From a virus (Duplodnaviria; Heunggongvirae; Uroviricota; Caudoviricetes), in the IMG/VR virus record IMGVR_UViG_2574180220_000005: 14,582 nt of DNA. One strand, given 5' to 3'. This document shows, in pieces, positions 1 to 14,582 of this stretch. The position numbers and the translations under genes are program-made. Numbering within the stretch: the first letter of the stretch is position 1; every line of letters starts with the position of its first letter. The notes beneath the pieces are model-generated. The model was given only the letters and a program-made list of their open reading frames with translations. It made no database searches and was not told the DNA's origin.

Positions 1-1362
1 ATGTTTAAACCGGAACTCCTTTCCCCGGCGGGAACGCTGAAAAATATGCGTTACGCTTTCGCTTATGGCGCAGATGCTGTTTATGCGGGCCAGCCGCGTT
101 ATTCCCTGCGTGTGCGCAACAACGAATTCAACCACGAAAATCTTCAGCTCGGCATCAATGAAGCCCACGCGCTGGGGAAAAAGTTTTATGTCGTGGTCAA
201 CATTGCACCGCACAACGCCAAGCTGAAAACCTTTATCCGTGACCTGAAACCGGTGGTGGAAATGGGGCCGGATGCGCTGATTATGTCCGATCCAGGGCTG
301 ATTATGCTGGTGCGTGAGCACTTCCCTGAAATGCCGATCCACCTTTCGGTGCAGGCTAACGCCGTGAACTGGGCGACGGTGAAATTCTGGCAGCAAATGG
401 GCCTGACCCGCGTGATCCTCTCTCGCGAGCTGTCGCTGGAAGAGATTGAAGAGATCCGCAATCAGGTGCCGGATATGGAGATCGAGATCTTCGTTCACGG
501 CGCGCTGTGCATGGCCTACTCCGGTCGCTGCCTGCTCTCTGGCTATATCAACAAGCGCGACCCGAACCAGGGCACCTGCACCAACGCCTGCCGCTGGGAG
601 TACAACGTCCAGGAAGGGAAAGAAGATGATGTTGGCAACATCGTACACAAGTACGAGCCGATTCCGGTGCAAAATGTTGAGCCGACGCTGGGTATCGGCG
701 CACCAACCGACAAAGTGTTTATGATCGAAGAGGCCCAGCGTCCGGGCGAGTATATGACCGCGTTTGAAGATGAGCACGGCACTTACATCATGAACTCGAA
801 AGATCTGCGCGCCATCGCCCATGTAGAACGCCTGACCAAAATGGGCGTGCATTCGCTGAAAATCGAAGGTCGTACCAAATCTTTCTACTATTGTGCACGC
901 ACCGCACAGGTTTACCGCAAAGCTATCGATGACGCCGCTGCGGGAAAACCGTTCGATACCAGCCTGCTGGAAACTCTGGAAGGTCTGGCGCATCGTGGCT
1001 ATACCGAAGGTTTCCTGCGTCGTCATACTCACGACGATTATCAGAACTACGAATACGGTTATTCAGTTTCTGACCGCCAGCAGTTTGTTGGTGAGTTTAC
1101 CGGTGAGCGCAAGGGGGACCTCGCGGCGGTAGCGGTGAAAAATAAATTCTCCGTTGGCGACAGCCTTGAGCTGATGACGCCGCAAGGCAACATTAATTTT
1201 ACCCTTGAGCACATGGAAAACGCCAAAGGCGAAGCTATGCCGATAGCACCAGGCGATGGTTATACTGTGTGGCTCCCGGTCCCGCAGGATCTTGAGCTCA
1301 ATTACGCGCTGCTGATGCGTAATTTCTCCGGGGAAACCACGCGTAATCCCCACGGTAAGTGA
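1..1362 (+). CDS. yegQ: Peptidase U32-family protein YegQ (also called TrhP), full-length 453 aa
   Basis: ORF 1..1362 with ATG at 1-3 and TGA at 1360-1362; translation (MFKPELLSPAGTLKNMRYAFAYGADAVYAGQPRYSLR...) recognised from memory as E. coli YegQ; no search run. Confidence 0.88.
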   Translation: MFKPELLSPAGTLKNMRYAFAYGADAVYAGQPRYSLRVRNNEFNHENLQLGINEAHALGKKFYVVVNIAPHNAKLKTFIRDLKPVVEMGPDALIMSDPGLIMLVREHFPEMPIHLSVQANAVNWATVKFWQQMGLTRVILSRELSLEEIEEIRNQVPDMEIEIFVHGALCMAYSGRCLLSGYINKRDPNQGTCTNACRWEYNVQEGKEDDVGNIVHKYEPIPVQNVEPTLGIGAPTDKVFMIEEAQRPGEYMTAFEDEHGTYIMNSKDLRAIAHVERLTKMGVHSLKIEGRTKSFYYCARTAQVYRKAIDDAAAGKPFDTSLLETLEGLAHRGYTEGFLRRHTHDDYQNYEYGYSVSDRQQFVGEFTGERKGDLAAVAVKNKFSVGDSLELMTPQGNINFTLEHMENAKGEAMPIAPGDGYTVWLPVPQDLELNYALLMRNFSGETTRNPHGK

Positions 1363-1412: not shown

Positions 1413-1446
1413 TACAGCTGCATTTATTAAGGTTATCATCCGTTTC

Positions 1447-1533
1447 GCTGAAAAACATAACCCATAAAATGCTAGCTGTACCAGGAACCACCTCCTTAGC
1501 CTGTGTAATCTCCCTTACACGGGCTTATTTTTT
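1447..1533 (+). ncRNA. cyaR: CyaR (RyeE) Hfq-dependent small RNA, ~87 nt, ending in an intrinsic terminator hairpin (cccttacacgggcttatttttt)
   Basis: Sequence gctgaaaaacataacccataaaatgctagctgtaccaggaaccacctccttagcctgtgtaatctcccttacacgggcttatttttt matches CyaR as I recall it; location just downstream of yegQ agrees with the E. coli K-12 map; terminal stem-loop plus U-tract visible. Confidence 0.85.
1507..1533. repeat. Prophage attachment-site core, copy 1 (27 bp, AATCTCCCTTACACGGGCTTATTTTTT), overlapping the cyaR terminator; ogr-proximal end of the prophage
   Basis: Exact 27/27 direct repeat with 14079..14105; it is the reverse complement of the 27-nt P2 att core AAAAAATAAGCCCGTGTAAGGGAGATT as I remember it. 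Confidence 0.8.
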
Positions 1534-1635: not shown

Positions 1636-1836
1636 TTACATCCACATAATTTGCTGCCCTGACGGCAACGGGTGCGGCCTTACGGCGTGGACTTCTCCCG
1701 GCTTCACGATGTATCGCTGTACCGACTCATAAGTGATGAACGTGGCGCTGCAATTCACGTTCTGACACTGGTGATAACGCTCTTTTGTCGTGTCAGTGAT
1801 ATAGCGACTTGTACGCGCATGTGCGGCATGCTGGCA
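1636..1836 (-). pseudogene. ogr: P2 late-gene activator Ogr, 5'-truncated: start codon and first zinc-finger cysteine lost at a deletion junction
   Basis: Translation ...CQHAAHARTSRYITDTTKERYHQCQNVNCSATFITYESVQRYIVKPGEVHAVRPHPLPSGQQIMWM matches P2 Ogr from its residue 7 onward (from memory). The upstream residues (VTVSASGV) differ and lack the first Cys of the C-X2-C...C-X4-C finger. The only upstream in-frame start is a GTG at 1858-1860. Confidence 0.8.
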
Positions 1837-2662
1837 TACCCCAGAAGCGGAAACCGTCACGGCGAATCAGTGTTGTGACGCCTGACTCGTTAAGCAGGTC
1901 AGCATCGGTGCCGGACTCCTGCAAATCCCAGAATACAGATGCGCTGATGCCGGTAACACCGTTCACCCCGACGTTGGACAGCGTTTTATGCCAGCCCTGC
2001 TCATGGTCTATTTTGGCACGCAGACCCAGCGCACGTGCGGTGGCATACGCGGTGGCGGTGGTACTGGTGACCGTATCCCATGCGAGGAAATCCGGCCAGA
2101 TGACCATCAGCTCACGCTGGCTGAAATTCTGGCGGTAGGCTTTCACCTCAGAAATGGTTTTACAGCCCCATGCGCTGATATACCCGAAAGCGCGCAGCTT
2201 CTGACAGACTGATGCCAGTGCAACAGCCACCTCTTTGGTATCCAGCCCCGGCACACCAAGAATACGCGGTTTAACACCGGTTACCGACTCCGCCGCCAGC
2301 AGGGCTTTCAGTCCGGTGTACTGACCGTTTTCGTCGGTGGTTCCGATGATATTGGAAACAGTCTGCGCGAGTTTCGTTTCTTCGTCTTCGCCGGTGCCGT
2401 CTTCCACGCGCACGACAACGGTGACCGGTTTTGACTGGTCGGCGATGGCCTGCAACGATGCCGCCAGCGTGCCTTTTTTACCGGCCTTTGCAATTGCGCT
2501 CTGCACATTGGTAATCAGCACCGGTTTATTGAGGGGGAAGATTTCCGCATCCGCATCGCTGGCCGTGCAGACCATGCCGACAATGGCAGTGGATACGGTG
2601 GAAATGACGCGGGTGCCGTCGTTAATCTCCAGCACCTGCACGCCGTGATGATAGTCACTCAT
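1837..2662 (-). pseudogene. FI: P2 tail sheath gene FI, N-terminal ~275 codons only, fused out of frame to the ogr remnant (the fusion ORF runs 1793..2662)
   Basis: ORF starts at ATG 2660-2662 with a GGAG Shine-Dalgarno; translation MSDYHHGVQVLEINDGTRVISTVSTAIVGMVCTASDADAE... matches P2 gpFI (from memory) up to ...RRDGFRFWG, then reads ogr DNA in another frame (MPACRTCAYKSLYH*). P2 FI is ~396 aa, so ~120 C-terminal codons are missing. Confidence 0.85.
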
Positions 2663-2785: not shown

Positions 2786-2937
2786 TGTCCTGACTTGCAC
2801 TCACTCATTTTCCAACTGACAATTTACATAGCCCAAACGCTATCAAATCTGACAGCCTGCTGTGAGCGAGGAGCAGACACATGAACCACACACATCATCC
2901 AACCACAGTCACGATAAGTATTATGCACTCTGTATAA

Positions 2938-4551
2938 CTATATTTTACCCGAAAACTCACCAAAATATGGTCTGAGAGCATTTCTCATTGACTCTCCACT
3001 TTCATTATTAGCCATCCTGACCACTAATTCAGCAAGCTGTCCATTAGCCAGCCCCAGATGCTTACTTACTTGGGATGAAAGGCTTTTCCTGTTATAAAGT
3101 TTTAATGCAAGAAGATAATCACGTTTCTCAACTGCATTATTAAACAGAGATAAACTTTCATCATAAAGCTCTTTAACATTAATTTGTGACGTCAACAACT
3201 CAAGAGCTCTACTAAGAGCATCGACCCCTTTTGCTTTTTCATCAAAACAATTAAGCATGAATTTAATTTCGCCAGCCACACGCAGTGAAATCTGAGTATC
3301 CAGCTCTGAGGATATTTTACGGAACACAAAATCTTTAACTGATTGTAGATCTTTATCTGGATTCCTGACTAATCGTTCGCTAACTAAAGTTATAACTTCC
3401 GGAACGCAAAAGAGATTTTCGACTTCAGCCACGCTTAGAGTATAAATACCGTATTCCAGAAGCGATTGAATTTCATTTTCAACACGTCTATCCCTATCAA
3501 TAATACCAAAAACTTCCATATAATGGAGTTTTTCACTGGCTCTTAGAGCTTTAACATTTTGTATTACTTGACTACAAGAACCAGATGGTATCACTAGATA
3601 ACTATTTAACACAGCACGATAAAGGGATACATCATAGCTTCCATTTTCCCCCTCAACAAAAACAATTGGTTTTCTACTACCCAATATTTCAATTAATAAA
3701 CTTTCTGGTAGGCCTTCGACATCGGGAACATCTTCCCAATCCCAACTGGAACCATCATAACTTTTTAACCAGATTTTCTTTGCATCATGCAGTGCTGCAG
3801 CAAAATCAGTATCATGAGTCATATATACAAACAGGCAATCAGGTCGGAGTTTTTCTATATCCTTCCATAATGGAACTTGTACAGATTTGTGAAGATGAAT
3901 TTCAGGCTCGTCTATGACAATAATTCCATTTTCGGGTGCTGCAAGACATTGCCCAATCAGATAGAAAATAACTCGCTCACCGTCGCTCATTTCCGAGGGG
4001 TTATAGACAGCCTCGTTATTTCCTTTTGCTCGTGTTTGAATTGTTAAACCGCCTAAAACAAGCTCTCGGTGAGGTAATGTTTTTTCCCAAATATATTTAA
4101 TTTTATCTAATTTAGTCGTCGTTGGTTCAATTCTTTTTTCTGAAGATTTAACTAATTCAATATATTTCGAGTCTTCTTCAATTTTGTCTGAAAAGAGATA
4201 CACCATTAATTTACCATAATCATTTAATGATGATATGGCAGGGTTACTTCCCCAGCGATAATTCTCTTTATACCAAAGTGGTTCCGACCCTTCCAAATTT
4301 TCAATTCCATAGAGTAAATTATTCTGTGCTTGTTGAAGCGAAGTTGGTGTTGTATGGTCAGGCATCGCTAAAGCCCGCTGAGCGGAAATACGATGAACAA
4401 TATTTCTTTGAGGAGATTTTAGATCCATCCATGTCCCAAGGCGAGACTTTCCAGAGCCATTCGCACCGATAATAAGCACGCTCTGATTAGTCTCTATTTC
4501 CGCTAGGTCTTTTTCTTTTGTAGGTAGTGTAATTGAAAATGAATTGCTCAT
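2938..4551 (-). CDS. Cargo gene 1: 537-aa ABC-type ATPase fused to a TOPRIM/DUF4435-like domain and a helical C-terminal tail (OLD-family or PARIS-like single-polypeptide candidate defence nuclease)
   Basis: Intact ORF with a strong RBS (AAGGAGGG before ATG 4549-4551). Walker A GANGSGKS (aa 29-36, nt 4444-4467), ABC signature-like SDGER (aa 189-193), Walker B IIVIDEPE (aa 210-217), H-loop YMTHD (aa ~246). TOPRIM-like Glu in PIVFVEGE (E300, nt 3652-3654) and DxD in GIIDRDRR (D352/D354, nt 3490-3498). Lower G+C than flanking P2 genes by eye. Sits between FI and G, the P2 Z/fun hotspot position. Confidence 0.6.
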   Translation of the reverse strand: MSNSFSITLPTKEKDLAEIETNQSVLIIGANGSGKSRLGTWMDLKSPQRNIVHRISAQRALAMPDHTTPTSLQQAQNNLLYGIENLEGSEPLWYKENYRWGSNPAISSLNDYGKLMVYLFSDKIEEDSKYIELVKSSEKRIEPTTTKLDKIKYIWEKTLPHRELVLGGLTIQTRAKGNNEAVYNPSEMSDGERVIFYLIGQCLAAPENGIIVIDEPEIHLHKSVQVPLWKDIEKLRPDCLFVYMTHDTDFAAALHDAKKIWLKSYDGSSWDWEDVPDVEGLPESLLIEILGSRKPIVFVEGENGSYDVSLYRAVLNSYLVIPSGSCSQVIQNVKALRASEKLHYMEVFGIIDRDRRVENEIQSLLEYGIYTLSVAEVENLFCVPEVITLVSERLVRNPDKDLQSVKDFVFRKISSELDTQISLRVAGEIKFMLNCFDEKAKGVDALSRALELLTSQINVKELYDESLSLFNNAVEKRDYLLALKLYNRKSLSSQVSKHLGLANGQLAELVVRMANNESGESMRNALRPYFGEFSGKI

Positions 4552-4813
4552 TTTTTGCCCTCCTTGTTCGCATGGAGTTTAATTAAAACTCAACATCTTA
4601 TTAGATACAACTATTCTTCTTATCAGCTCACAATTCCCTGAAGGTAACTTTTGGTTGCATCTTTAGCAAGATGTTAATATAAGGTAGTTTCATGATAATC
4701 ATATCCAATAGTGATAGAACATTAAAGTATCCGCTCCTGGCACAGAGCGTACTGTCAGATTAGGCTTAACTCTGTGCCATAGATACGTTTGCTCACTCCA
4801 GAGATCATACAAC

Positions 4814-5341
4814 TTATTGCGGCATTTCCGGCCATTCAGGATTTGCAGGATCCACACGACTGACCAGAACGCTGTAACGCTCCCATGCATCCAGTCGGCT
4901 ACGCTCCTCATCTGTTGCCATGTTCAGTCTGACAGCGCGATCCAGCGGCAAAATCACGGATTCAGCATCTGCAAGAAGTCTGGCTTTCCGGTTTTCTGCC
5001 TGCTGCTGCAATTCCTCTGCCGTATAAATGCGTTTAATCACTTTGCCGTCCTTAAACATCCAGTTCCCTGAAATGTCCGCCCGTCGGTTAGCAGTAATAT
5101 CCGCCACTTCAACAACACTTAATCCATCCGGTCTGATAGCTGTCACATCCTTTTCCACATAGCGGATGATATTATCTTTGTCGTACGCTATTTTTAGCGT
5201 GTCATCAGCAAAATACTTTTGTTCTTCGTACCAGTTCTTACCATCTTCTGAAAAAAACCAGACAACATCAAAGTCTTTTGTCAATTGATATTGTTCAACC
5301 GTTTTTGGATTACCTGCCGTTATATTTATCAAATGCTGCAT
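4814..5341 (-). CDS. G: P2-type tail fiber assembly protein gpG, 175 aa, intact
   Basis: Translation [40 protein letters not shown]...[14 protein letters not shown] is the same length as, and closely resembles, P2 gpG (from memory). Confidence 0.8.
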
Positions 5342-5344
5342 AAA

Positions 5345-5590
5345 TTATACCTGCGCCACGTTATACCAAGTCCCGTTAATGTATTTCTGCACCGGTCTGT
5401 AATATACGCCACCAATGTTATCGGCAGAGTTTGAGCCGGTATCCTGAACAATAATGCCGGAATATACACACCCGGACGGTGCCTGATGTGTCCATGTCAT
5501 ACCATTGTTCGCAGGTTTGTATGTGGCAGCACCACCAAGCCGGATATCCCGGACATAGCGTGAATCAAAGTTGCCATAGTTAGATGGTGA
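5345..5590 (-). pseudogene. H: Tail fiber gene H, C-terminal ~80 codons only
   Basis: Minus-strand frame ending at TAA (plus-strand 5345-5347) encodes ...NYGNFDSRYVRDIRLGGAATYKPANNGMTWTHQAPSGCVYSGIIVQDTGSNSADNIGGVYYRPVQKYINGTWYNVAQV, a P2-like tail fiber C-terminus. There is no start codon, and it abuts the J fragment in a different frame. Confidence 0.55.
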
Positions 5591-5726
5591 TACGGGCGAC
5601 CGCCTCCTGCTGGTCTTCCGGGTAAAGGGAAATCAGTGTCGCCTTGCGTTCGGCAAGAATGGTTTCAAAGTCCAGCTCCTCGACCACATCCGGTGCGGGT
5701 AGCTGGTTCAGGTCGATAATCGGCAT
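5580..5726 (-). pseudogene. J: Baseplate gene J, N-terminal ~45 codons only, ending in a premature stop at the deletion junction
   Basis: ATG at 5724-5726 directly after the W stop; translation MPIIDLNQLPAPDVVEELDFETILAERKATLISLYPEDQQEAVAR matches the P2 gpJ N-terminus (from memory), then ITI and a stop. Confidence 0.7.
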
Positions 5727-5730
5727 GGTT

Positions 5731-6078
5731 TCAACTCACAGGGATGGTTAACGAAAGTGGCTGGCCGGTGTCGTTGTGCTGGCCGGTCAAAGTGACAGTC
5801 ATTCGCCCGTCAAAACTGCGCTCAGTGGTGACGGATGACAGGGTGATGCGGGGTTCCCATTTCAGCACCGCCATGTAACAGGCGACCTTAATCTGCAACT
5901 CAAGCGCCGGGGTCTGCGGCTGGTCAATCATTGACGCCAGCAACGAGCCGTAATCACGACGCATCACCCGTGAGCCGATCGGTGTGCGCAGGATATCGCC
6001 GATACTCTGGCTGATATGCTCAAGGTCAGTGACAGTCAGGCCATCACTGCGATTCATTCCGAGATAACGCGCTGTCAT
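5731..6078 (-). CDS. W: P2 baseplate wedge protein gpW (gp25-like), 115 aa, intact
   Basis: Translation MTARYLGMNRSDGLTVTDLEHISQSIGDILRTPIGSRVMRRDYGSLLASMIDQPQTPALELQIKVACYMAVLKWEPR... matches P2 gpW (from memory). Its start overlaps the stop of the upstream V fragment (ATGA). Confidence 0.85.
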   Translation of the reverse strand: MTARYLGMNRSDGLTVTDLEHISQSIGDILRTPIGSRVMRRDYGSLLASMIDQPQTPALELQIKVACYMAVLKWEPRITLSSVTTERSFDGRMTVTLTGQHNDTGQPLSLTIPVS

Positions 6079-6300
6079 TTTGTCCCCTGTGTCCAGTTGT
6101 CACCTGACTTAACACCACCGTGACCGTGGTCATCCACCTGAACGCCGTTAGAAGTGAATTTCCCGTCGGTATCCGCCGTGGCTGTCTGGAATATGACGTC
6201 AGCGCCACCGACATCACCAGCTCGTTTATGGCTATCCGCAAGACCATGACCAGCAGTGGACGCAGCGCCACCTATGAGGCCAGCCGCAGCGAGGAAGCCA
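6075..6300 (-). pseudogene. V: Baseplate spike gene V, C-terminal fragment (upstream boundary uncertain)
   Basis: The minus-strand frame ends ...GKFTSNGVQVDDHGHGGVKSGDNWTQGTK with a stop overlapping the W start; the His/Gly-rich C-terminus resembles the P2 gpV apex. The expected ~210-aa ORF is absent. Confidence 0.5.
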
Positions 6301-6404
6301 GCCACGCCGACCTCGCCTGGGCGACCATGCACGCCCTGTTAAATGAGCCACTCACCGCCGGTATCAGCACCCCGCTGACATCCACCATTCTGGAGTTTTA
6401 CTGA
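6300..6404 (+). pseudogene. P: Probable 3' remnant of the large terminase gene P (5' boundary uncertain)
   Basis: The plus-strand frame ends ...LAWATMHALLNEPLTAGISTPLTSTILEFY with a stop overlapping the Q start (TGATG), the arrangement expected for the P-Q operon. I cannot confirm the protein match from memory. Confidence 0.35.
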
Positions 6405-7438
6405 TGAGCAAGAAAAAAGGGAAAACACCGCAACCTGCGGCAAAAAAAATGACCGCCAGCGCCCTGAAAATGGAGGCATTCACCTTTGGTGAGCCGGTGC
6501 CGGTACTCGACCGCCGTGACATTCTAGATTACGTCGAGTGCATCAGTAACGGCAGATGGTATGAGCCGCCGGTCAGCTTTACCGGTCTGGCAAAAAGCCT
6601 GCGTGCTGCCGTACATCACAGCTCACCGATTTACGTCAAACGTAATATTCTGGCCTCGACATTTATCCCGCATCCGTGGCTTTCCCAGCAGGATTTCAGC
6701 CGCTTTGTGCTGGATTTTCTGGTGTTCGGTAATGCGTTTCTGGAAAAGCGTTACAGCACTACCGGTAAGGTCATCAGACTGGAAACCTCACCGGCAAAAT
6801 ATACCCGCCGTGGCGTGGAGGAGGATGTTTACTGGTGGGTGCCGTCCTTCAACGAGCCGACAGCCTTCGCGCCCGGTTCCGTGTTTCACCTGCTGGAGCC
6901 CGATATTAATCAGGAGCTGTACGGCCTGCCGGAATATCTCAGCGCCCTTAACTCTGCCTGGCTGAATGAATCGGCCACGCTGTTCCGCCGCAAGTATTAC
7001 GAAAACGGCGCACATGCCGGATACATCATGTACGTCACCGATGCCGTGCAGGATCGCAACGATATCGAAATGCTTCGCGAAAACATGGTGAAGTCGAAAG
7101 GCCGCAACAACTTTAAAAATCTGTTTCTCTATGCCCCGCAGGGGAAAGCCGACGGCATTAAAATTATCCCGCTCAGTGAAGTGGCAACGAAGGACGATTT
7201 TTTTAATATCAAAAAAGTCAGCGCCGCTGACCTGCTGGACGCACACCGCATCCCCTTTCAGTTGATGGGCGGCAAGCCGGAGAACGTCGGGTCACTGGGA
7301 GATATTGAGAAAGTGGCAAAGGTCTTTGTCCGCAATGAGCTTATCCCGTTACAGGACAGGATCCGCGAGATAAACGGCTGGCTCGGTCAGGAGGTCATCC
7401 GCTTTAAAAACTACTCACTGGACACTGACAACGGCTGA
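6404..7438 (+). CDS. Q: P2 portal protein gpQ, 344 aa, intact
   Basis: Translation MSKKKGKTPQPAAKKMTASALKMEAFTFGEPVPVLDRRDILDYVECISNGRWYEPP... matches P2 gpQ in sequence and length (from memory). Confidence 0.9.
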   Translation: MSKKKGKTPQPAAKKMTASALKMEAFTFGEPVPVLDRRDILDYVECISNGRWYEPPVSFTGLAKSLRAAVHHSSPIYVKRNILASTFIPHPWLSQQDFSRFVLDFLVFGNAFLEKRYSTTGKVIRLETSPAKYTRRGVEEDVYWWVPSFNEPTAFAPGSVFHLLEPDINQELYGLPEYLSALNSAWLNESATLFRRKYYENGAHAGYIMYVTDAVQDRNDIEMLRENMVKSKGRNNFKNLFLYAPQGKADGIKIIPLSEVATKDDFFNIKKVSAADLLDAHRIPFQLMGGKPENVGSLGDIEKVAKVFVRNELIPLQDRIREINGWLGQEVIRFKNYSLDTDNG

Positions 7439-7443
7439 ACATC

Positions 7444-7465
7444 GCCGCCTGCGGGCGGCTTTTTT
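7444..7465 (+). terminator. Rho-independent terminator after Q (GCCGCC-tgcg-GGCGGC followed by TTTTTT)
   Basis: 6-bp GC stem at 7444-7449 / 7454-7459 followed by a T6 tract at 7460-7465, immediately 3' of the Q stop. Confidence 0.75.
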
Positions 7466-7607
7466 ACAACCCGCCATCACGCCCTCACACGCTCACCACC
7501 GCACAAAACAGCCCGCATACACACCAACGCCCCGGCGCACAATCTAAACGCCATCACGACGCGCTCAGACGCTGAAAAAATAAAATCAGCACCCCCGCCA
7601 GCGCGCA

Positions 7608-7626
7608 GTGCTTTCCCCGCCTCGCC
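7608..7626. other. P2 cos cohesive-end sequence (19 nt), within the cos region between Q and cargo gene 2
   Basis: GTGCTTTCCCCGCCTCGCC is the exact reverse complement of the P2 19-nt cohesive end GGCGAGGCGGGGAAAGCAC as I recall it; located where cos is expected, next to Q. Confidence 0.7.
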
Positions 7627-7941
7627 CGCCCGCTTCATGGGGCGGTTTTAATGCAGTTGCATGATGAAACTGAAATCACATCAGCACTGACCGAAACTGA
7701 CAAAAAGAATAGTATCTGACACATGCAAAAACACGCACTTAATATACGCCTATCTATAGCTCCTACAGGATTGTCAAAAAACGACCAACTCGTCATAGCG
7801 TAAACACATTTGGCTCAACGAACACTTACGTTATATGCCTCTTGAACATATCAAAGTCTTAAGGTAGATCTTTACCACTAAGTGGCTATATTAAGCTGCT
7901 TTTTTACATACAATAAAAGCTTTATCGTATGAGGCATAAAA

Positions 7942-10158
7942 ATGGAACTTAGATTAAAAAATGTTACCAGTTATAAGAAAGACGCCTTCACAATACTGAA
8001 TCTTGAAAAAAGAGTAAACATACTATACGGCCAAAATGGTTGTGGCAAATCTACCATTTCAAATTATTTCTACGACTCTACACACACAGATTATAACGAG
8101 TGTGAATGTACCCTTCTTGACAATTACAAACCTCTTGTTTACAACACTAAATTTATTGAAGATAATTTCTACAATGCACAGGAACAAAAAGGTGTTTTTA
8201 CATTAAGTAAAGAAAATGCAGATATTGAAAAACAATTAATTGAAAAAGAAGCAATTAAACAGCAACTCACAGAGCAATATAGACAAAAAAAAGGAGTGTT
8301 ATTGAAATTAGAAGCAGAAATGGAAAAAAAAGAAAATGAATACATCGAATCGATCTGGAAAAAAACAGAACCAATCAGAAACTCTGTACTAAAAACCTTA
8401 ATGAAAGGTAAAGTTGGCTATAAAAGACCTTTTTTTGAGATGATAAAATCATCCTCACCAATCACCTTTATTAATTTAAATGATATAGCAAAAGAATACT
8501 CTATACTATTAGAAAATAGAAACAATGAAACCGCATTAATAACTCCTTTACATCCATATATCCCATCAATTGATGATGTAAATACATTAGCAACACCTAT
8601 AATAGATACAAGCAATAGCTATTTATCAGAAACCATTAATAAACTTCATAATCTTGACTGGGTAAAAAAAGGTAAAGAACATTATTTAGACGGTTCTACA
8701 TGTCCGTTTTGTCAGGAAAAAACTATTAGTCACGAATTTTTAAATGCCCTTAAATCAATATTTGACGAAAGTTATTCAAAGAAAGTAAAACAGCTCTCAG
8801 ATATAAAGTCAGTTTATGAGAAAAATACTATATATCATTTTAACGAAATACAAAACAATATATCATCATGTGCACTAATCAATGAGAAAGATAAAGAGAA
8901 CATTATTTCCAATATTAAAATATTGCAAAACATTGCAGAAAAAAATTTAATAAACATTATTGATAAGATCAACAATCCATCAACATGCGTTACATTAGAA
9001 ATTGATAAAGAACTAGAAAATCATGTTCAGGAAAGCATAGGCGCTGTTAACAAGAAAATAAGAGACATAAATGATAAGGTTAAAAAACTCAAAGAGTATG
9101 AGAATAAAATCGGAAAACAAGTTTGGGGGGCTCTCCATGCTTTTTGCAGCGATGATTTAGAGAATTTATCCAAACACAAAGAAAAATTCTTTGATATCAA
9201 AAAGAAAGTTCATGATGAATTAAATAATATTGAGCAACAAGGAAAAGAAAATAATCTCACAATAAAAGCATTGCGAGATAAAATATCTAACATTGATTCT
9301 ACGATAGACTCAATAAACACCCATTTAAAAAATCTAGGGATCTCTGGTTTTTGTATTGAAAAACATGCAGAAAGAAAAGATATGTACATTATATCTCGAC
9401 CAGGGCATACAAAAAACCAAAATGTTTATAGATCTCTTAGCGAAGGTGAAAAAACACTAATAACGTTTCTTTATTTTTTAGAGTGCTGTAAAGGTAAAAC
9501 CGATAAAAATGATACCGATAGCAGGGATATTTTTATTGTTATTGACGATCCAATATCTAGTCTATCGCAAAACTATGTCTACGACATCGCATCAATTATT
9601 CATCACCACATTATAAAAAATGAATTAACAAAGAAGGTATTAATCCTTACTCACAATCTTTATTTCTTTCATGAACTTATTAAGCTATCTCCTAAAAGCA
9701 GAGAAGACAAACTATTTAAGAAAAACTATTATCTAGGTAGAGTAACGAAAAATGATTTTAGTATAATTACTGAAATACAAAAAAACAGCATACAGAATGA
9801 ATATCAATCTTTGTGGCAAATATTAAAAGATGCAAAAGATGGCAAAGCAAACAAAATCATAATACCGAATATTATGAGAAACATACTAGAATATTATTTT
9901 GCATTTGTTCATAGAACAGATGCTCTACAAGATGAATTAACAAAGTTGGCACGCGACGATAGCAACAGTGATTTCAAAGCATTCTACAGATACATTAACA
10001 GAGGTTCTCACTCTGATGCGGTAAATATTACTGATATGGGCGACATAGACCCAGATAAATACCTAAAACAATTGAGAACAATATTTTCAGCTACTGGTGA
10101 CGAAATGCATTATTTAAAAATGATGGACGAACTAGAAGAGGAGAACGTTACCGCTTAG
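7942..10158 (+). CDS. Cargo gene 2: 738-aa AAA_13-type ABC ATPase with a long coiled-coil insert, a CxxC zinc-hook-like motif and a C-terminal putative RNase domain (RloC/PrrC-like anticodon-nuclease candidate)
   Basis: Intact ORF with GAGG ~8 nt before the ATG. Walker A GQNGCGKST (aa 30-38, nt 8029-8055); ~450-aa helical, Lys/Glu-rich insert; CPFC at aa 254-257 (nt 8701-8712); ABC signature LSEGEK (aa 498-503); Walker B IFIVIDD (aa 530-536, nt 9529-9549); H-loop LILTHN (aa ~571). C-terminal ~160 aa carry R-x3-E (RNILE, aa 646-650) and R-x6-H (RYINRGSH, aa 683-690). About 30% G+C by rough hand count of a 70-nt sample, against roughly 50% for the backbone. Sits between cos and A, the P2 tin/old hotspot position. 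Confidence 0.55.
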   Translation: MELRLKNVTSYKKDAFTILNLEKRVNILYGQNGCGKSTISNYFYDSTHTDYNECECTLLDNYKPLVYNTKFIEDNFYNAQEQKGVFTLSKENADIEKQLIEKEAIKQQLTEQYRQKKGVLLKLEAEMEKKENEYIESIWKKTEPIRNSVLKTLMKGKVGYKRPFFEMIKSSSPITFINLNDIAKEYSILLENRNNETALITPLHPYIPSIDDVNTLATPIIDTSNSYLSETINKLHNLDWVKKGKEHYLDGSTCPFCQEKTISHEFLNALKSIFDESYSKKVKQLSDIKSVYEKNTIYHFNEIQNNISSCALINEKDKENIISNIKILQNIAEKNLINIIDKINNPSTCVTLEIDKELENHVQESIGAVNKKIRDINDKVKKLKEYENKIGKQVWGALHAFCSDDLENLSKHKEKFFDIKKKVHDELNNIEQQGKENNLTIKALRDKISNIDSTIDSINTHLKNLGISGFCIEKHAERKDMYIISRPGHTKNQNVYRSLSEGEKTLITFLYFLECCKGKTDKNDTDSRDIFIVIDDPISSLSQNYVYDIASIIHHHIIKNELTKKVLILTHNLYFFHELIKLSPKSREDKLFKKNYYLGRVTKNDFSIITEIQKNSIQNEYQSLWQILKDAKDGKANKIIIPNIMRNILEYYFAFVHRTDALQDELTKLARDDSNSDFKAFYRYINRGSHSDAVNITDMGDIDPDKYLKQLRTIFSATGDEMHYLKMMDELEEENVTA

Positions 10159-10186
10159 GCCGCATATTATCGTTTTGGGTAAGAAC

Positions 10187-10206
10187 GACGGTGCTTACGC
10201 ACCGTC
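10187..10206. terminator. Hairpin between the convergent cargo gene 2 and A (GACGGTGC-ttac-GCACCGTC); possible terminator or structured element, no U-tract
   Basis: Perfect 8-bp stem with a 4-nt loop, read by eye; no flanking T-run on either strand. Confidence 0.3.
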
Positions 10207-10381
10207 TCCCAACGCCCAAAGCGGTAGCGGTTGTACTGGCGTACATTCACTAGCTTTAACATGAGGCAATCTCCATGCCAGCACTATTGTTGCCAATAGC
10301 AGCCTTTATACCCTTTGTACAAAGCTAATACCAAGAGTAATGCAAAGTAGATGTCCCAAGCGGTAACGGGGCTATTCTATG

Positions 10382-12673
10382 TCAAACACAGAAAAAATCA
10401 AAGCGCCCTATGAATCCCCCCCAACCATCAGCGACCGGATACGTGAATTTTTTCCCGTCATAATTTACGGTCGCTCCACGCGCCAGCGCCTCAAGCTCCC
10501 ATCGCTGCGGCATGATACCGTTCTGAGCAAGGTCAACGCGGATACGGGTGATTTGCAATCGTTCAGACCTGGTCAGTCTGGCAGATGGTGCAATTTCATG
10601 CGGTTTTAACGGGCTTCCGTTTCTTTGCTGACGGTTTGGCGTTCTCAGGTCGTATTTTAATGCGCCCCTGAGCGCCCTCACGACCTCCGGTTCATTCCAT
10701 TCAATAACACCGTCATCAACCAGATTAAGCACTGCTGCGGCGTGCTCAGAAGGTGTGGGAGCCGGTAACGAAGTATCACCACCGGTGAGCTTTCCACAGT
10801 TATTGACAGGACTCCGAGGCGCGGCGATGCCGCTTTTTAAAGTCAGAGGCTCAACGACCGGAACTTTCGGCACAATGCGCCAGTCCGTCGTTCTGGTGAT
10901 ATGAATATGACGCGCGCCGAGATGCGGCGCGTAAATGCCGACCACTCTCTCGACTTCTTCCTCGTACTCGTTAACTTCATCCGACGGACTACGGGCGACC
11001 CTGACAGTCTGACAATCGCGCGGGACATTTGCCCCACCCTGCGCGCTGATATACAACGCAAAATCACCACTGTCTGCGGCGGCGCGTGCAGCCTCGACGC
11101 GCTCGTCAAACTCATCAGCAATGCTGACGCCGCGAGGCAATTTGCGTAGTTCACGGTAAGCCCCCATTGTCGGCAGACCAACCGTTTTAAATTGTGGGAT
11201 GCGCCACGTTGACGCCCATGCGGTAACAGCCGCAGCAGTGTCTTTCAGCGGTCTGCCGGTATCGTTATCGAGCTGACCATCCAGTGCATAGCCATCGATG
11301 TTTTTTGAGATGTATTTCGCGATATACCCCGCAGCACCGCCCTGGTTAAGGTGTTTTGCCTGAAAACGGTTTCGCGCGGCTCCTCTTTCGTCGCCATCCT
11401 CTTTGAGCGCATAGCGACGCATGATTTCGATAATCTGGTTACGCTGGCGTGGATTACAAAAAAGCATCATATGCCAGTGCGGCGTTCCGTCGTGGTGTGG
11501 CTCGACGACACGCAAACCGTAGACCTGTAAATCATTATCTTTGAATGCCGTGCGCATCAGGCTCCAGATATGGCAGAGATAACGCTGCGCATCCTTTGGA
11601 TTAAATGCCTCATCGTTCCAGCCGTGATTTAGCTGGACGGTTTTACTTTCGCCTTTTCCGACCTGACGTGTCGGGTGATACTTTGAAGGCGCGGTAAGCG
11701 TGATAAACATCCCCACATCACCCTCTGCGGCGGCGTAACGCTCAATACCGGCAATGGTGTTCATCAGCTCCATCCGGCGAATTTCAGGATTAGAAATACT
11801 GCCCATCACCTTACTGATAAGGTCGATGCGCTCGCCGGTTTCCCTGTTTTCAAGGTCACACGATTTAAGAAATTCCAGATTTGCCTGGCGGCGTGCACGC
11901 ACATCACGAATGGCATGTTTACTGGCATAAGGAGAACGGTCTTTATTCACCTCCCCGACAGCAATCAGTAACGCCTCATGCCAGCGCATACGCTGGCCTT
12001 TGAGCTGATGAGTCCACCACTCATCGTTAAACAGACGGGCAATGGCAGAATATGCCTGCCTCGTGGTCATCTGTCCTTTACGGTATTTTTTCCAGTAAAG
12101 CGGGGAAATATTGAAAGCACGTGCAGCGCCAGCAACATGACCATAGAGGTGAGCCTGCGCCTCATCCGTAAACAGCGATTCTTTTTCGCCATGTGCATCC
12201 ACCCAGGCATCGCTGAGTTCCTCATACATCATGAAAAGCTGCGATGAGATACGGGCGGCAAACTTTTTCAGCTCCTTGTCATTCATTCCCGGCAGGCGCG
12301 CATAGTGGTCACGCTCTGCCAGAAACAGCAACGACGCGTCGGTGTTCATTTCATGGCGCTGATTCACACGCTCAATGCGCGGCCATAAACGACGCTGAAA
12401 AGTGGATGTGAGGAAATAAAACCCGTGCACCGGGCTTTTATTGCGCCGGATGTAGTCATAGCGTGAAGTAAACAGCGAGCGCAAAAAGTAAGGCAGGCGG
12501 TTAATCGTGGATAAAACACCTTGCATCTGACGCATCTCGTCACGTGTAAGGGGTCTTTCGCGCCCGACGGCCTCGCGTGGCGCGTTCCATGCATAAGCAC
12601 CGGTAAACATCTTACCGGTGCCTGCGGCAAATGCTGACGGAGGGACAAAACGCCCGGAGGCTTTAACGGCCAT
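10382..12673 (-). CDS. A: P2 replication initiation protein gpA (rolling-circle Rep of the HUH superfamily), intact; the ORF track's upstream Met at 12715 is an alternative start
   Basis: Translation from MAVKASGRFVPPSAFAAGTGKMFTGAYAWNAPREAV... matches P2 gpA (from memory). HUH motif PHWHMML and paired active-site tyrosines GYIAKYISK are present. The P2 origin is known to lie inside the A coding sequence (established knowledge; not located here). Confidence 0.88.
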   Translation of the reverse strand: MAVKASGRFVPPSAFAAGTGKMFTGAYAWNAPREAVGRERPLTRDEMRQMQGVLSTINRLPYFLRSLFTSRYDYIRRNKSPVHGFYFLTSTFQRRLWPRIERVNQRHEMNTDASLLFLAERDHYARLPGMNDKELKKFAARISSQLFMMYEELSDAWVDAHGEKESLFTDEAQAHLYGHVAGAARAFNISPLYWKKYRKGQMTTRQAYSAIARLFNDEWWTHQLKGQRMRWHEALLIAVGEVNKDRSPYASKHAIRDVRARRQANLEFLKSCDLENRETGERIDLISKVMGSISNPEIRRMELMNTIAGIERYAAAEGDVGMFITLTAPSKYHPTRQVGKGESKTVQLNHGWNDEAFNPKDAQRYLCHIWSLMRTAFKDNDLQVYGLRVVEPHHDGTPHWHMMLFCNPRQRNQIIEIMRRYALKEDGDERGAARNRFQAKHLNQGGAAGYIAKYISKNIDGYALDGQLDNDTGRPLKDTAAAVTAWASTWRIPQFKTVGLPTMGAYRELRKLPRGVSIADEFDERVEAARAAADSGDFALYISAQGGANVPRDCQTVRVARSPSDEVNEYEEEVERVVGIYAPHLGARHIHITRTTDWRIVPKVPVVEPLTLKSGIAAPRSPVNNCGKLTGGDTSLPAPTPSEHAAAVLNLVDDGVIEWNEPEVVRALRGALKYDLRTPNRQQRNGSPLKPHEIAPSARLTRSERLQITRIRVDLAQNGIMPQRWELEALARGATVNYDGKKFTYPVADGWGGFIGRFDFFCV

Positions 12674-12938
12674 ATGAGCCAAAAGCCTCTGAACAACGCT
12701 TGCTGAGTTGCTCAACCTGCACGTTTAAATCAGCAAAAGACTTTGCGCTTCCGGTCAGAATATCGTGATGCATCAGGCCTGAAACGAGCTGGCTTAATTT
12801 CGGGTAATAACCAACCACCGCCAGCCATTCCTGACCGGCGTTTTTACCGCTTTCCGCTCTCTTTTTCTCGTGGAGAATAAACTGAAAGCTGTCACTGGTA
12901 ACGACATAACGTTCGCCAATTTCAATACGAATACTCAT
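12663..12938 (-). CDS. Small early-operon protein immediately upstream of A (P2 orf83-like; name uncertain), 91 aa
   Basis: ORF with a GGAG RBS, ending 11 nt into A in another frame; its start overlaps the stop of the upstream remnant (ATGA). Synteny with the P2 orf80-83/A block; identity not verified. Confidence 0.55.
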   Translation of the reverse strand: MSIRIEIGERYVVTSDSFQFILHEKKRAESGKNAGQEWLAVVGYYPKLSQLVSGLMHHDILTGSAKSFADLNVQVEQLSKRCSEAFGSYGR

Positions 12939-13027
12939 GCCGTTCTCCGGTAATGTTTGTTTTTTGCTTCAAAGACTGACTGACAGGAAACACAACGCGT
13001 GGCTGACGGGTAAGCCGCACGACGGGC
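12935..13027 (-). pseudogene. 3' remnant (~30 codons) of the gene preceding the orf83-like gene (P2 orf82-like?), truncated at the int junction
   Basis: The minus-strand frame ends ...PSATRCVSCQSVFEAKNKHYRRTA with TGA overlapping the ATG of the next gene; further upstream the same strand is antisense to int. Confidence 0.3.
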
Positions 13028-13999
13028 ATCCGCCCTACTGGACGTAATGGAAAACGCATCCGTAGGAAGTTTGATAAGAAAAGCGAAGCTGTCGCTTTCG
13101 AGAAATACACGTTGTACAACCACCACAATAAAGAATGGCTATCAAAACCAACAGACAAGCGACGTCTGTCGGAGCTGACACAGATCTGGTGGGATTTAAA
13201 GGGTAAACACGAAGAGAATGGGAAATCTAATCTTGGAAAAATTGAAATCTTCACAAAAATAACGAATGACCCATGCGCATTTCAAATTACGAAATCGCTT
13301 ATCAGCCAGTACTGCGCCACCCGAAGAAGTCAGGGTATTAAACCTTCGAGTATCAATCGTGATTTAACATGTATTAGCGGCATGTTTACAGCCCTGATTG
13401 AAGCGGAGTTATTCTTTGGTGAGCACCCTATCAGAGGGACAAAAAGGCTTAAGGAGGAAAAACCAGAAACAGGCTATCTAACACAGGAAGAAATTGCCTT
13501 ACTGCTTGCAGCACTTGACGGCGACAATAAAAAGATTGCGATTCTTTGCCTGAGTACAGGAGCACGTTGGGGAGAAGCAGCTCGTTTGAAAGCAGAAAAT
13601 ATCATCCATAACCGCGTCACGTTTGTTAAAACGAAAACAAACAAACCACGCACCGTCCCGATCTCAGAGGCTGTTGCCAAAATGATCGCGGATAACAAAC
13701 GAGGTTTTTTATTCCCTGATGCTGATTACCCTCGCTTCAGACGAACAATGAAAGCAATAAAACCGGATTTGCCAATGGGGCAAGCCACACATGCACTAAG
13801 GCACAGCTTTGCCACTCATTTCATGATTAATGGAGGAAGTATTATCACGCTACAACGGATACTAGGTCACACGCGGATTGAGCAAACTATGGTTTACGCT
13901 CATTTTGCGCCAGAGTACCTTCAGGACGCCATTTCTCTTAATCCGCTAAGAGGTGGTACTGAGGCCGAGAGTGTCCACACAGTGTCCACAGTAGAGTAA
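13028..13999 (+). pseudogene. int: P2 integrase (tyrosine recombinase), missing ~14 N-terminal codons and its ATG; catalytic domain intact
   Basis: The frame reads IRPTGRNGKRIRRKFDKKSEAVAFEKYTLYNHHNKEWL... to ...TEAESVHTVSTVE, matching P2 Int from about residue 15 (from memory). An in-frame TGA at 13004-13006 leaves no ATG or GTG before the match; the first candidate start is the TTG at 13112 used by the ORF track. Catalytic-site motifs ARWGEAARLK, HALRHSFATH and GHTRIEQTMVYAHF are present. Confidence 0.8.
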
Positions 14000-14078
14000 C
14001 GTTTAAGGGCTTTCAGTGGTAATTTATGCCGCTCAAACCCGCATTGTACCGTTGAAAGCCCCTACTGGTGACACCCTA

Positions 14079-14105
14079 AATCTCCCTTACACGGGCTTAT
14101 TTTTT
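14079..14105. repeat. Prophage attachment-site core, copy 2 (27 bp), int-proximal end
   Basis: Exact direct repeat of 1507..1533, lying ~80 bp downstream of the int stop. Confidence 0.8.
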
Positions 14106-14169
14106 TATGCATAAGCCCTATCTCTGGTCACCGTCTTCCATTGACCACATCGATAGAATCTCCCTTCAT

Positions 14170-14202
14170 AGCACGATGCCTTTCACGTAACGGCATCGTG
14201 CT
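14170..14202. repeat. Perfect 11-bp inverted repeat AGCACGATGCC-N11-GGCATCGTGCT in host DNA between the att core and yegR
   Basis: Read directly from the sequence; no adjacent U-tract, so not a canonical intrinsic terminator. Confidence 0.5.
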
Positions 14203-14264
14203 CGCACAGGTTCCGGCTAAGCACAACCAGAACGCGCATGTTTGACGCTTACCAAAAAATATTC

Positions 14265-14582
14265 TCACTCTCCACATTTGAATGTCAGACGAGCGACGCC
14301 ATGTAATCCTGCACCTTCTGTCTTCAGGTCAACTATCTGCATTTTTTTGCCCTGAGTAACACAGAAATGGGCTGCATCATTTTTTACTATATTTTCTGCA
14401 CCAGATATTCTGCCCCTGGCTAAAGAAGCTTCGGCTTCGGTGTAGTATTGATTATCGAGTTTACGCTGAATATTACTTTTATATGCAAGACCAAATTTAC
14501 CGATACTTGTCTCATCATTATGCACAGCACAACCAGACATAATAAAAATACTAATTAATGATATAGCAGCTATCTTTTTCAT
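14265..14582 (-). CDS. yegR: Putative lipoprotein YegR, 105 aa (signal peptide MKKIAAISLISIFIMSGC with lipobox Cys)
   Basis: ORF with ATG at 14580-14582 (rc) and stop at 14265-14267; same length and neighbourhood as E. coli yegR downstream of the cyaR/ogr region; lipoprotein signal evident. Confidence 0.65.
   Translation of the reverse strand: MKKIAAISLISIFIMSGCAVHNDETSIGKFGLAYKSNIQRKLDNQYYTEAEASLARGRISGAENIVKNDAAHFCVTQGKKMQIVDLKTEGAGLHGVARLTFKCGE

Follow-up and report, generated by a model that had tools for sequence, protein, structure and literature searches.

The window analysed here is a whole stretch of 14,582 nt from a Caudoviricetes record (IMG/VR IMGVR_UViG_2574180220_000005). It contains an element of 12,599 bp delimited by two att cores, in agreement with the ~12.6 kb given in a preliminary description of this DNA, and the element is inserted between yegQ/cyaR and yegR, i.e. 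at the P2 attachment locus. The window was mapped piecewise by blastn against P2 (NC_001895), which yielded the following segments:

1507-1838, P2 24382-24052: att, IHF site, P arm, and ogr without its first 16 nt
1837-2877, P2 18477-17433: N-terminal part of FI, and pF
2878-4729: no P2 homology, low GC
4730-5399, P2 15357-14689: G
5591-6078, P2 11427-10940: J' and W
6167-7626, P2 1458-1: last 237 nt of P, then Q, tQ and cos
7608-7655, P2 33593-33546: cos, right-end side
7656-10411: no P2 homology, low GC
10412-13028, P2 30295-27679: A, orf83 and orf82'
13024-14105, P2 25437-24356: int without 14 codons, Cox boxes, P' arm and att

Relative to P2, the window has lost C, cox, orf78, B, orf80 and orf81 together with Pe/Pc, and O, N, M, L, R and S along with the lysis genes; also gone are I, H, FII through D, most of V and of J, almost all of P, and the start and promoter of ogr. 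The two foreign inserts occupy the two known P2 cargo hotspots. Gene order, att bounds and intact cargo are those of the class of defective P2-like prophages that carry hotspot defence genes. The individual genes, sites and deletion junctions (J1 to J4) are:

1-1362: yegQ/trhP, left host flank
1445-1530: cyaR small RNA gene (Rfam CyaR, 100.7 bits), whose 3' end overlaps the left att core
1507-1533: left att core, 27 nt, direct repeat, 0/27 mismatches to the P2 attP core
1532-1596: IHF site and P-arm Int arm-type sites of the left junction (sites annotated in P2)
1636-1838, minus strand: ogr remnant, first 16 nt and promoter gone (the blastn match ends at P2 24052, and ogr starts at 24036)
1793-2662, minus strand: N-terminal fragment of tail sheath gene FI, 275 aa, running out of frame into ogr (Pfam Phage_sheath_1)
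1837/1838: J1, joining ogr' to FI', with a 2-nt microhomology; diagnostic of the 12.6-kb form
2938-4551, minus strand: fused PARIS AriAB, 537 aa, in the Z/fun hotspot (PADLOC E 1.7e-186)
4814-5341, minus strand: remaining late gene G, for tail fibre assembly (Pfam Caudo_TAP; 76.6% identity to P2 G)
5591-5593: J2, within the J'/W region
5591-6078, minus strand: J' fragment and baseplate gene W (GPW_gp25; blastn, P2 11427-10940)
6167-6176: J3, which removed P, O, N, M, L, the lysis genes, R, S and most of V
6167-6403, plus strand: 3' 237 nt of the terminase large subunit gene P (blastn, P2 1458-1221)
6404-7438, plus strand: portal gene Q, intact, 344 aa (Pfam Phage_portal)
7444-7468, plus strand: tQ, rho-independent terminator of the P-Q operon (terminator scan; corresponds to the P2 tQ annotation, 160-181)
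7601-7655, minus strand: 55-bp cos core common to P2 and P4 (alignment with P2, P4 and an intact prophage)
7656-7941, plus strand: cargo-specific upstream region of the PDC-S06 gene (blastn against P2)
7942-10158, plus strand: PDC-S06 candidate defence gene, 738 aa, in the old/tin hotspot adjoining cos (PADLOC E 1.2e-254)
10382-12673, minus strand: replication initiator gene A, 763 aa, frame open (Phage_GPA, E 2e-124)
12663-13028, minus strand: orf83 (DUF5405) and a 3' fragment of orf82 (blastn, Pfam)
13024-13028: J4, which removed orf81, orf80, B, orf78, cox, Pe/Pc, C and int codons 1-14
13028-13999, plus strand: integrase gene without its first 14 codons, start codon and promoter (translation; Pfam Int_N and Phage_integrase)
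13965-14062: P' arm Int sites and Cox-box region of the right junction (sites annotated in P2)
14079-14105: right att core, 27 nt, a perfect repeat of the left and equal to the P2 attP core
14265-14582, minus strand: yegR, right host flank

The interval that first drew attention, 7444-7940, is the entire intergenic region between Q and the cargo gene, from the tQ terminator up to the cargo start codon; the Q protein itself differs from P2 Q at 5 aa and from that of the intact sister prophage at 1 aa. The 19-nt cohesive-end sequence of P2, GGCGAGGCGGGGAAAGCAC, had been reported at 7608-7626, and it is indeed there, on the minus strand, as a single exact copy; allowing up to 2 mismatches, 0 of 200 shuffled sequences matched it, and 0 matches are expected by chance. 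For its surroundings, the circularised cos regions of P2 and P4 were aligned with the window and with the intact sister prophage of strain 09-00049. The 55-bp core common to P2 and P4 cos (PMC5694545, PMC2231350), laid out as 29 nt on the right-end side followed by 19 and 7 nt, is identical to P2 at 54 of 55 positions; the sole mismatch is also present in the intact prophage, and P4 differs there too. Across the 339 aligned bases of the cos surroundings, the window matches the 09-00049 prophage except for one private SNP outside the core.

That SNP, at position 7594, is a C in the window and an A in P2 and all relatives, and sits 14 nt past the cohesive end on the Q side. The P2 base was found in 119 of 120 P2-like contigs of IMG/VR and the base of the window in 1 of the 120; when region 7556-7626 was compared with phage records, at least 30 matched it at 70 of 71 positions and none at 71 of 71. 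Inactivation of cos by this change was considered and judged unlikely, since the position lies outside the P2/P4 core and the P4 sequence is unrelated there. P4 is packaged by the P2 terminase all the same, so the substitution is probably tolerated for packaging. On the cargo side, P2 homology ends at 7655, 29 nt past the cohesive end, which is normal, since the cos-adjacent defence hotspot begins at that point in all P2-like phages (PMC9122126). The P2 packaging site is truly present, and it is predicted to be usable.

Both att cores have been kept, as the preliminary description stated, in the form of perfect 27-nt repeats at the two ends. The accompanying sites show few mismatches to P2: 0/28 in the P arm, 2/34 in the IHF site, 0/27 in the cores, 0/74 in the Cox-box region and 0/27 in the P' arm. 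Gene A was likewise described correctly as intact with an internal origin: its frame is open, its product and the gpA of the intact sister prophage are 100% identical, and the ori nick site falls inside it at window position ~10815, with the 80 nt around it identical to P2, whose record (NC_001895) also places the nick inside A. Judged by these alignments, the cis sites that a helper would need (att arms, cos, ori) are all intact.

The trans functions have fared differently. Four deletions, at J1 to J4 in that order, account for 5,573 + 3,374 + 8,506 + 2,237 nt (19.7 kb), each with a microhomology of 2-5 nt at its junction; the J1 deletion was measured against strain 700481 (below) and the J3 deletion against the intact prophage. 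The integrase of the window has no canonical start codon and Pc is gone too; the annotation of strain 700481 lists the same truncated int as a 'phage integrase' of 323 aa. The part lost from ogr includes Cys4 of the zinc finger. With int truncated and cox deleted, the element is predicted to be incapable, by itself, of either excising or integrating in a recipient.

Expression of A is also in doubt. The suspicion that its early promoter had been deleted proved right: Pe (P2 25884-25912) falls within the deleted interval P2 25438-27678, and B is deleted as well. Upstream of A on the minus strand no promoter was detected above chance (4 weak sites versus 2.8 ± 1.6 expected), and there is a terminator-like hairpin at 13172-13148. 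Read-through from yegR into A was considered; it would need ~1.5 kb of transcription antisense to int and would meet this hairpin, and it is unsupported. Given the deletion of Pe and B and the want of an above-chance promoter for A, the element probably cannot replicate on its own. Further, gpA is said, after work by Lindahl in 1970, to act preferentially in cis, so the gpA of a helper would be a poor substitute in replicating the element.

Homology (PADLOC AriAB and PDC-S06) identifies both cargo genes as defence genes, as had been proposed. AriAB combines the Pfam domains AAA_21 and DUF4435 and lies in a low-GC insert without P2 homology, and PDC-S06 is an AAA_13 ATPase (Pfam AAA_13, E 1e-111). 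The PDC-S06 protein is identical to the copies in intact prophages, and AriAB is 1 aa away from its counterparts in other strains. The cargo-specific region upstream of PDC-S06 has one promoter-like site, a weak one, at 7716-7745. Single-base frameshifts occur in AriAB or PDC-S06 of some members of the lineage and may be assembly errors.

Close relatives allow the history of the element to be read in steps. In strain 09-00049 this locus is occupied by an intact prophage of ~32 kb that has both cargo genes and is ~99.9% identical to the window. Strain 700481 has an 18.2-kb intermediate that shares J2-J4 and retains FI-D and ogr, from which the window differs by one extra deletion, that at J1. 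J1 was found in 0 of 5,426 complete E. coli genomes, and J3 and J4 were each found in one of these 5,426, which is strain 700481. Metagenome contigs and GTDB representatives yielded neither J1 nor J4, and in IMG/VR J4 turned up in one provirus fragment, which corresponds to window 2938-14582 apart from 2 mismatches and shares its yegR flank.

An exact-protein look-up with the FI'-fusion ORF revealed the 12.6-kb form in 54 index blocks, from which 24 contigs were read and six representative places displayed in detail. All six lie beside yegQ, parDE, yegP, baeRS and mdtD, and the remaining 18 of the 24 contigs grouped with these representatives, their neighbouring genes being mostly shared; the five displayed loci that span the element have 1-5 changes relative to the window. 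The same type of look-up gave no match for the junction-spanning ORF 12922-13254, nor for the 295-aa Int' ORF, a query that carries a private SNP (13217) changing residue 36.

The look-up with gpA hit 911 index blocks, most of them from intact prophages that sit at yegR and share this cargo, and it also yielded two further remnants. That of JS316 arose by a single deletion (P2 1959-23803) and measures 11,262 bp, keeping int, C, cox, B, A, cargo, cos, Q and ogr; that of L3452210II has a deletion of P2 1978-19106 and measures ~16 kb. Their junctions are private, each found in one complete genome. Over 4.5 kb of left flank JS316 is identical to the window lineage, and over 2.3 kb of right flank JS316, L3452210II and 700481 are identical to one another. 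The left flank of 700481 is identical to the window lineage for 1.16 kb past att and is then 3.7% divergent; these flanks place a homologous-recombination breakpoint within yegQ, not at att. Transfer mediated by att was also considered as the reason why 700481, with its divergent left flank, shares the element, and was set aside, as identity passes att by 1.16 kb and the right flanks are identical. No transfer bounded by att sites was seen in the flank comparisons of the window lineage, 700481, JS316 and L3452210II.

These comparisons suggest that one clonal background was lysogenised once and that the prophage then decayed along at least two independent routes; on the same grounds the 12.6-kb element belongs to one E. 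coli clone and is inherited vertically. Turning to cos-bearing contigs of IMG/VR that extend for 6.6 kb or more on the Q side, we found the full Q-P-O-N-M module in 24 of 25, a survey too small and too biased to rate cos retention in remnants.

The preliminary description had imagined a P2-like superinfecting phage mobilising the element much as a satellite is mobilised. The likeness to satellites does not hold up. The packaging signal is helper-matched, the cos core being that of P2/P4, but own integration and excision functions are missing with the truncated int and deleted cox, and genes for sensing or manipulating a helper are likewise missing, no sid, psu, delta or epsilon homologue being found among the ORFs of the window. 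Nor is the element found in multiple unrelated hosts or sites: the 24 contigs all share a single locus and type of flank. The one related complete genome examined for a co-resident P2-like helper, that of 700481, yielded none.

The anatomy of the element, the integrity of its cis sites, the loss of its trans functions and its vertical distribution are direct observations. From them we infer, with less certainty, why cos has been retained and to what degree a helper could mobilise the element. The reading that we favor, and consider quite likely, is that cos is a passive, intact relic in a young, vertically inherited, decayed P2-like prophage. The starting point would have been an intact 32-kb prophage whose Z/fun hotspot contained PARIS (AriAB) and whose old/tin hotspot, next to cos, contained PDC-S06; 19.7 kb would then have been lost from it through four illegitimate deletions at microhomologies of 2-5 nt. 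The cos site may persist because decay is recent (~99.9% identity to intact sisters), and it may also be sheltered by its position in a 500-nt spacer between the retained Q and a cargo gene whose upstream region abuts cos. Inheritance would be vertical, and competence of the cis sites (att arms, cos, ori) a by-product. A P2-type helper providing Int, Cox, terminase and capsids could probably still excise and package the element at low frequency, and its establishment in a recipient would need Int in trans or homologous recombination; the comparisons give no sign of such an event or of selection for it. Three observations run counter to the decay reading. Every cis site for excision, replication and packaging has stayed intact, beyond what random decay strictly demands; the block of Q, cos, cargo and A was kept on both independent decay routes, which could hint at selection on it, though two routes are a small sample and the cargo gene by itself would account for this; and the 700481 comparison reveals some recombination close to the element.

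Other explanations differ in what they take cos and the cargo to be doing. One, which we regard as possible though rather unlikely, has the cargo exported by homologous recombination: an incoming or resident P2-like phage would take the PDC-S06 or AriAB cassette by way of the Q-cos/A or G/FI flanks, with the remnant acting as a reservoir for hotspot swapping and cos perhaps as a recombinogenic end. Kilobase-scale flanks 95-99% identical to P2-like phages bracket both cassettes, the block of A, PDC-S06, cos and Q occurs in many intact prophages (the 911 gpA index blocks), recombination driven by cos ends has been proposed for exactly this hotspot by Rousset et al. (PMC9122126), and defective elements have been raised as possible swap partners (PMC13586616). 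However, there is no direct sign of the remnant as donor, and the cargo alleles, the same as those of intact prophages, point to no direction of exchange. A little less probable again, in our estimation, is that cos has been kept by selection, either because the spacer holds the promoter or regulation of PDC-S06 or because the host has domesticated the block of Q, cos, cargo and A. The transcript starts of old/tin in P2 sit between cargo and cos (P2 record), the intact cargo proteins match those of functional prophages exactly or almost exactly, and the block has been kept on both independent decay routes. Yet the cargo-specific upstream region excludes cos and has just the weak promoter-like site noted above, the frameshifts in some lineage members (if not assembly errors) speak against selection on the cargo, and two routes are too few for statistics.

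Mobilisation by a helper, in which a superinfecting P2-type phage supplies Int and Cox and excises a 12.57-kb circle, its terminase cuts cos and the particle delivers the defence genes, would make the remnant a proto-satellite or 'hitcher'; as an account of this element we find it improbable. Its feasibility stands up well. The att arms, cos core and ori are intact, and the C repressor is absent, so the host would not be immune to the helper. The terminase of P2/P4 prefers covalently closed circles, which it cuts at the 55-bp cos, and packages cos plasmids of 5-10 kb (PMC2231350); titres are high, at ~2e9 TU/mL for a pUC-based cos plasmid that a P2 delta-cos lysogen packages in P2 capsids and ~9e9 TU/mL for an 11.55-kb cosmid in P4 capsids (PMC9942202). 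As such small circles are packaged, the size of the element should be no barrier, and the earlier worries over size limits and cos flanks are largely answered. Cox acts in trans, complementing cox-defective prophages (PMC3936717), helpers are common, with P2-type late genes in ~28% of complete E. coli genomes, and defective prophages as proto-hitchers are a recognised concept (PMC11389934). It is on occurrence that the proposal falters. No copy was seen beyond one locus and clonal background in the look-ups and junction scans, the junctions are private, and identity with 700481 continues 1.16 kb past att into host DNA. A transduced copy, with Int truncated and promoterless, could not integrate unaided; Pe and B are deleted and A has a terminator-like hairpin in place of an above-chance promoter; helper gpA, if reportedly cis-preferring, would replicate the element poorly; and genes for manipulating the helper (sid, psu, delta, epsilon) are absent and ogr is truncated. 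The real obstacles are thus a single-copy substrate that needs excision in trans, doubtful replication, and no unaided integration. Helper-dependent transduction is possible in principle, by analogy with these packaging systems, but that a helper has ever moved this element is unsupported by the comparative data, and the idea itself is already established. The defence genes would more probably exit through homologous recombination with incoming P2-like phages, across the Q-cos and A flanks, than through helper packaging. Least probable of all, we think, is a broader proposal in which P2-like prophages at this locus repeatedly shrink to 11-18 kb mini-P2s made up of att, cos, ori-gpA and cargo, these being genuine proto-satellites that helpers package at relevant rates. 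This would be an early stage of reductive helper-to-hitcher evolution, with the window's element at a later, more crippled one; its strongest candidate would be the 11.26-kb element of JS316, in which int, C, cox, B, A, ogr and cos are intact.

Read as a decayed prophage with a relic cos, the element can be set among known systems. The classical extreme among cryptic P2 prophages is the ogrK/yegZ remnant of K-12, which lies at this locus. Defective P2 elements with conserved defence genes are a described class (Nucleic Acids Res 2026, PMC13586616), in a study that also raises their mobility as a question. The window's element resembles them in its site (yegQ/cyaR-yegR), in P2 synteny broken by internal deletions, and in the loss of mobility and structural genes with the Z/fun and cos-adjacent defence genes intact, but unlike them it is young (~99.9%) and keeps both att sites with their arms, the cos core, and gpA with ori. 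Its cos resembles that of P2/P4 in the identical 19-nt end, the 29-nt right-hand part held in common with P4, and the position between Q and variable cargo; it differs from P2 cos by the private substitution 14 nt past the cohesive end on the Q side.

Comparison with the satellite P4 and with P2-P4 cosmids also cuts both ways. Size (12.6 kb versus 11.6 kb), a cos matched to the P2 terminase, absence of capsid and terminase genes, and defence cargo beside cos are all similar. Unlike P4, the element is without a functional integrase or excisionase, an autonomous or helper-induced replication module with a recognisable promoter, and sid, psu, delta and epsilon, its ogr is truncated, it stems from the helper lineage itself, and it shows no sign of spread. 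Defective lambdoid prophages of E. coli O157 have been excised, packaged and transferred in experiments, using functions of co-resident prophages (Asadulghani et al. 2009, as recounted in PMC11389934); the element in the window, as far as its letters tell, resembles those prophages in keeping its cis sites.

The window provides a clean, datable case of stepwise decay, from intact prophage to 18.2-kb to 12.6-kb form, with independent sibling routes alongside. Its defence cargo and all its cis sites have outlasted the trans functions, and such an element will be no surprise to specialists. For the proto-satellite question, a mini-P2 of the JS316 type is a better object than the element described here, which may serve as a test substrate. 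If helpers do move such remnants, 'dead' prophages would stay in the mobile pool of anti-phage defence genes, and elements of this kind would be a record of a satellite arising from its own helper lineage.

The host sRNA gene cyaR (RyeE) was detected at window positions 1445-1530 on the plus strand (100.7 bits) and at its 3' end runs into the left att core (1507-1533); after integration the end of the sRNA gene therefore comes from P2 core sequence. Further into the element the ogr reading frame stays open:

1636-1860, minus strand: ogr-frame ORF, 74 aa, GTG start

Some annotations label this ORF Ogr_Delta; it lacks the ogr promoter, and the first zinc-finger cysteine motif has changed from CPLC to SGVC.

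Codon 103 of the fused PARIS protein AriAB (window 4243) specifies Asn in the window vs Lys in strain 700481, which carries an 18.2-kb decay intermediate; the nucleotide is G in the window and in the lineage contig L128, and T in 700481, in strain 09-00049 (which has an intact sister prophage) and in four other lineage contigs. Two assemblies of the window lineage, draft or Logan, each have a 1-base deletion causing a frameshift, in PDC-S06 for L129 (equivalent of window 9615) and in AriAB for L130 (equivalent of window 4080); these mark either the onset of defence-gene decay or homopolymer assembly errors. Among relatives covering position 13217, the substitution there (His to Asn in Int', the truncated integrase) occurs in the window only, and another at 14129, which lies 24 nt beyond the right att core, is one that the window has in common only with an IMG/VR provirus fragment (L006).

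The window lineage and strain 700481 are identical from about window 346 through the whole element. Upstream of this point (the yegQ 5' part, parDE, yegP and baeRS) they diverge by 3.7%, with 125 differences in 3.3 kb, as measured by comparing L002 with L128 (window 102-345 and upstream). The boundary is a homologous-recombination breakpoint within yegQ.

Adjoining the cohesive end, and within the P2/P4 cos core, is a GC-rich hairpin followed by TTTT (7626-7645, plus strand). One arm of the stem differs among P2-like contigs in IMG/VR (CCGCCC, CCGACC) with no compensating change in the other; thus the stem may not be the feature recognized by terminase. In one sister prophage (L136, GCA_024768055.1, 15374-17676), intact otherwise, the cos-containing spacer that separates Q from the PDC-S06 cargo gene has been invaded by an IS21-family element (istA/istB).

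Four 'complete' E. coli chromosome records, NZ_CM129038.1 (700481), NZ_CP058618.1, NZ_CP076527.1 and CP169397.1, have as position 1 the exact start of the prophage gpA gene, annotated 'replication endonuclease'; these assemblies may have been re-oriented on the phage replication gene rather than on dnaA.

One of these, NZ_CP058618.1 (strain JS316), bears at the same locus an 11,262-bp mini-P2 (L142 1-7584 plus L143 2323-6000) that arose independently of the window's element, by a single deletion (P2 1959-23803) whose junction is private to the JS316 genome. It is nearly equal in size to P4 and keeps intact int, C, cox, B, orf80-83, A/ori, PDC-S06, cos, Q and ogr. As a proto-satellite, i.e. a remnant possibly movable by a P2 helper, the JS316 mini-P2 is a much better candidate than the window's element.
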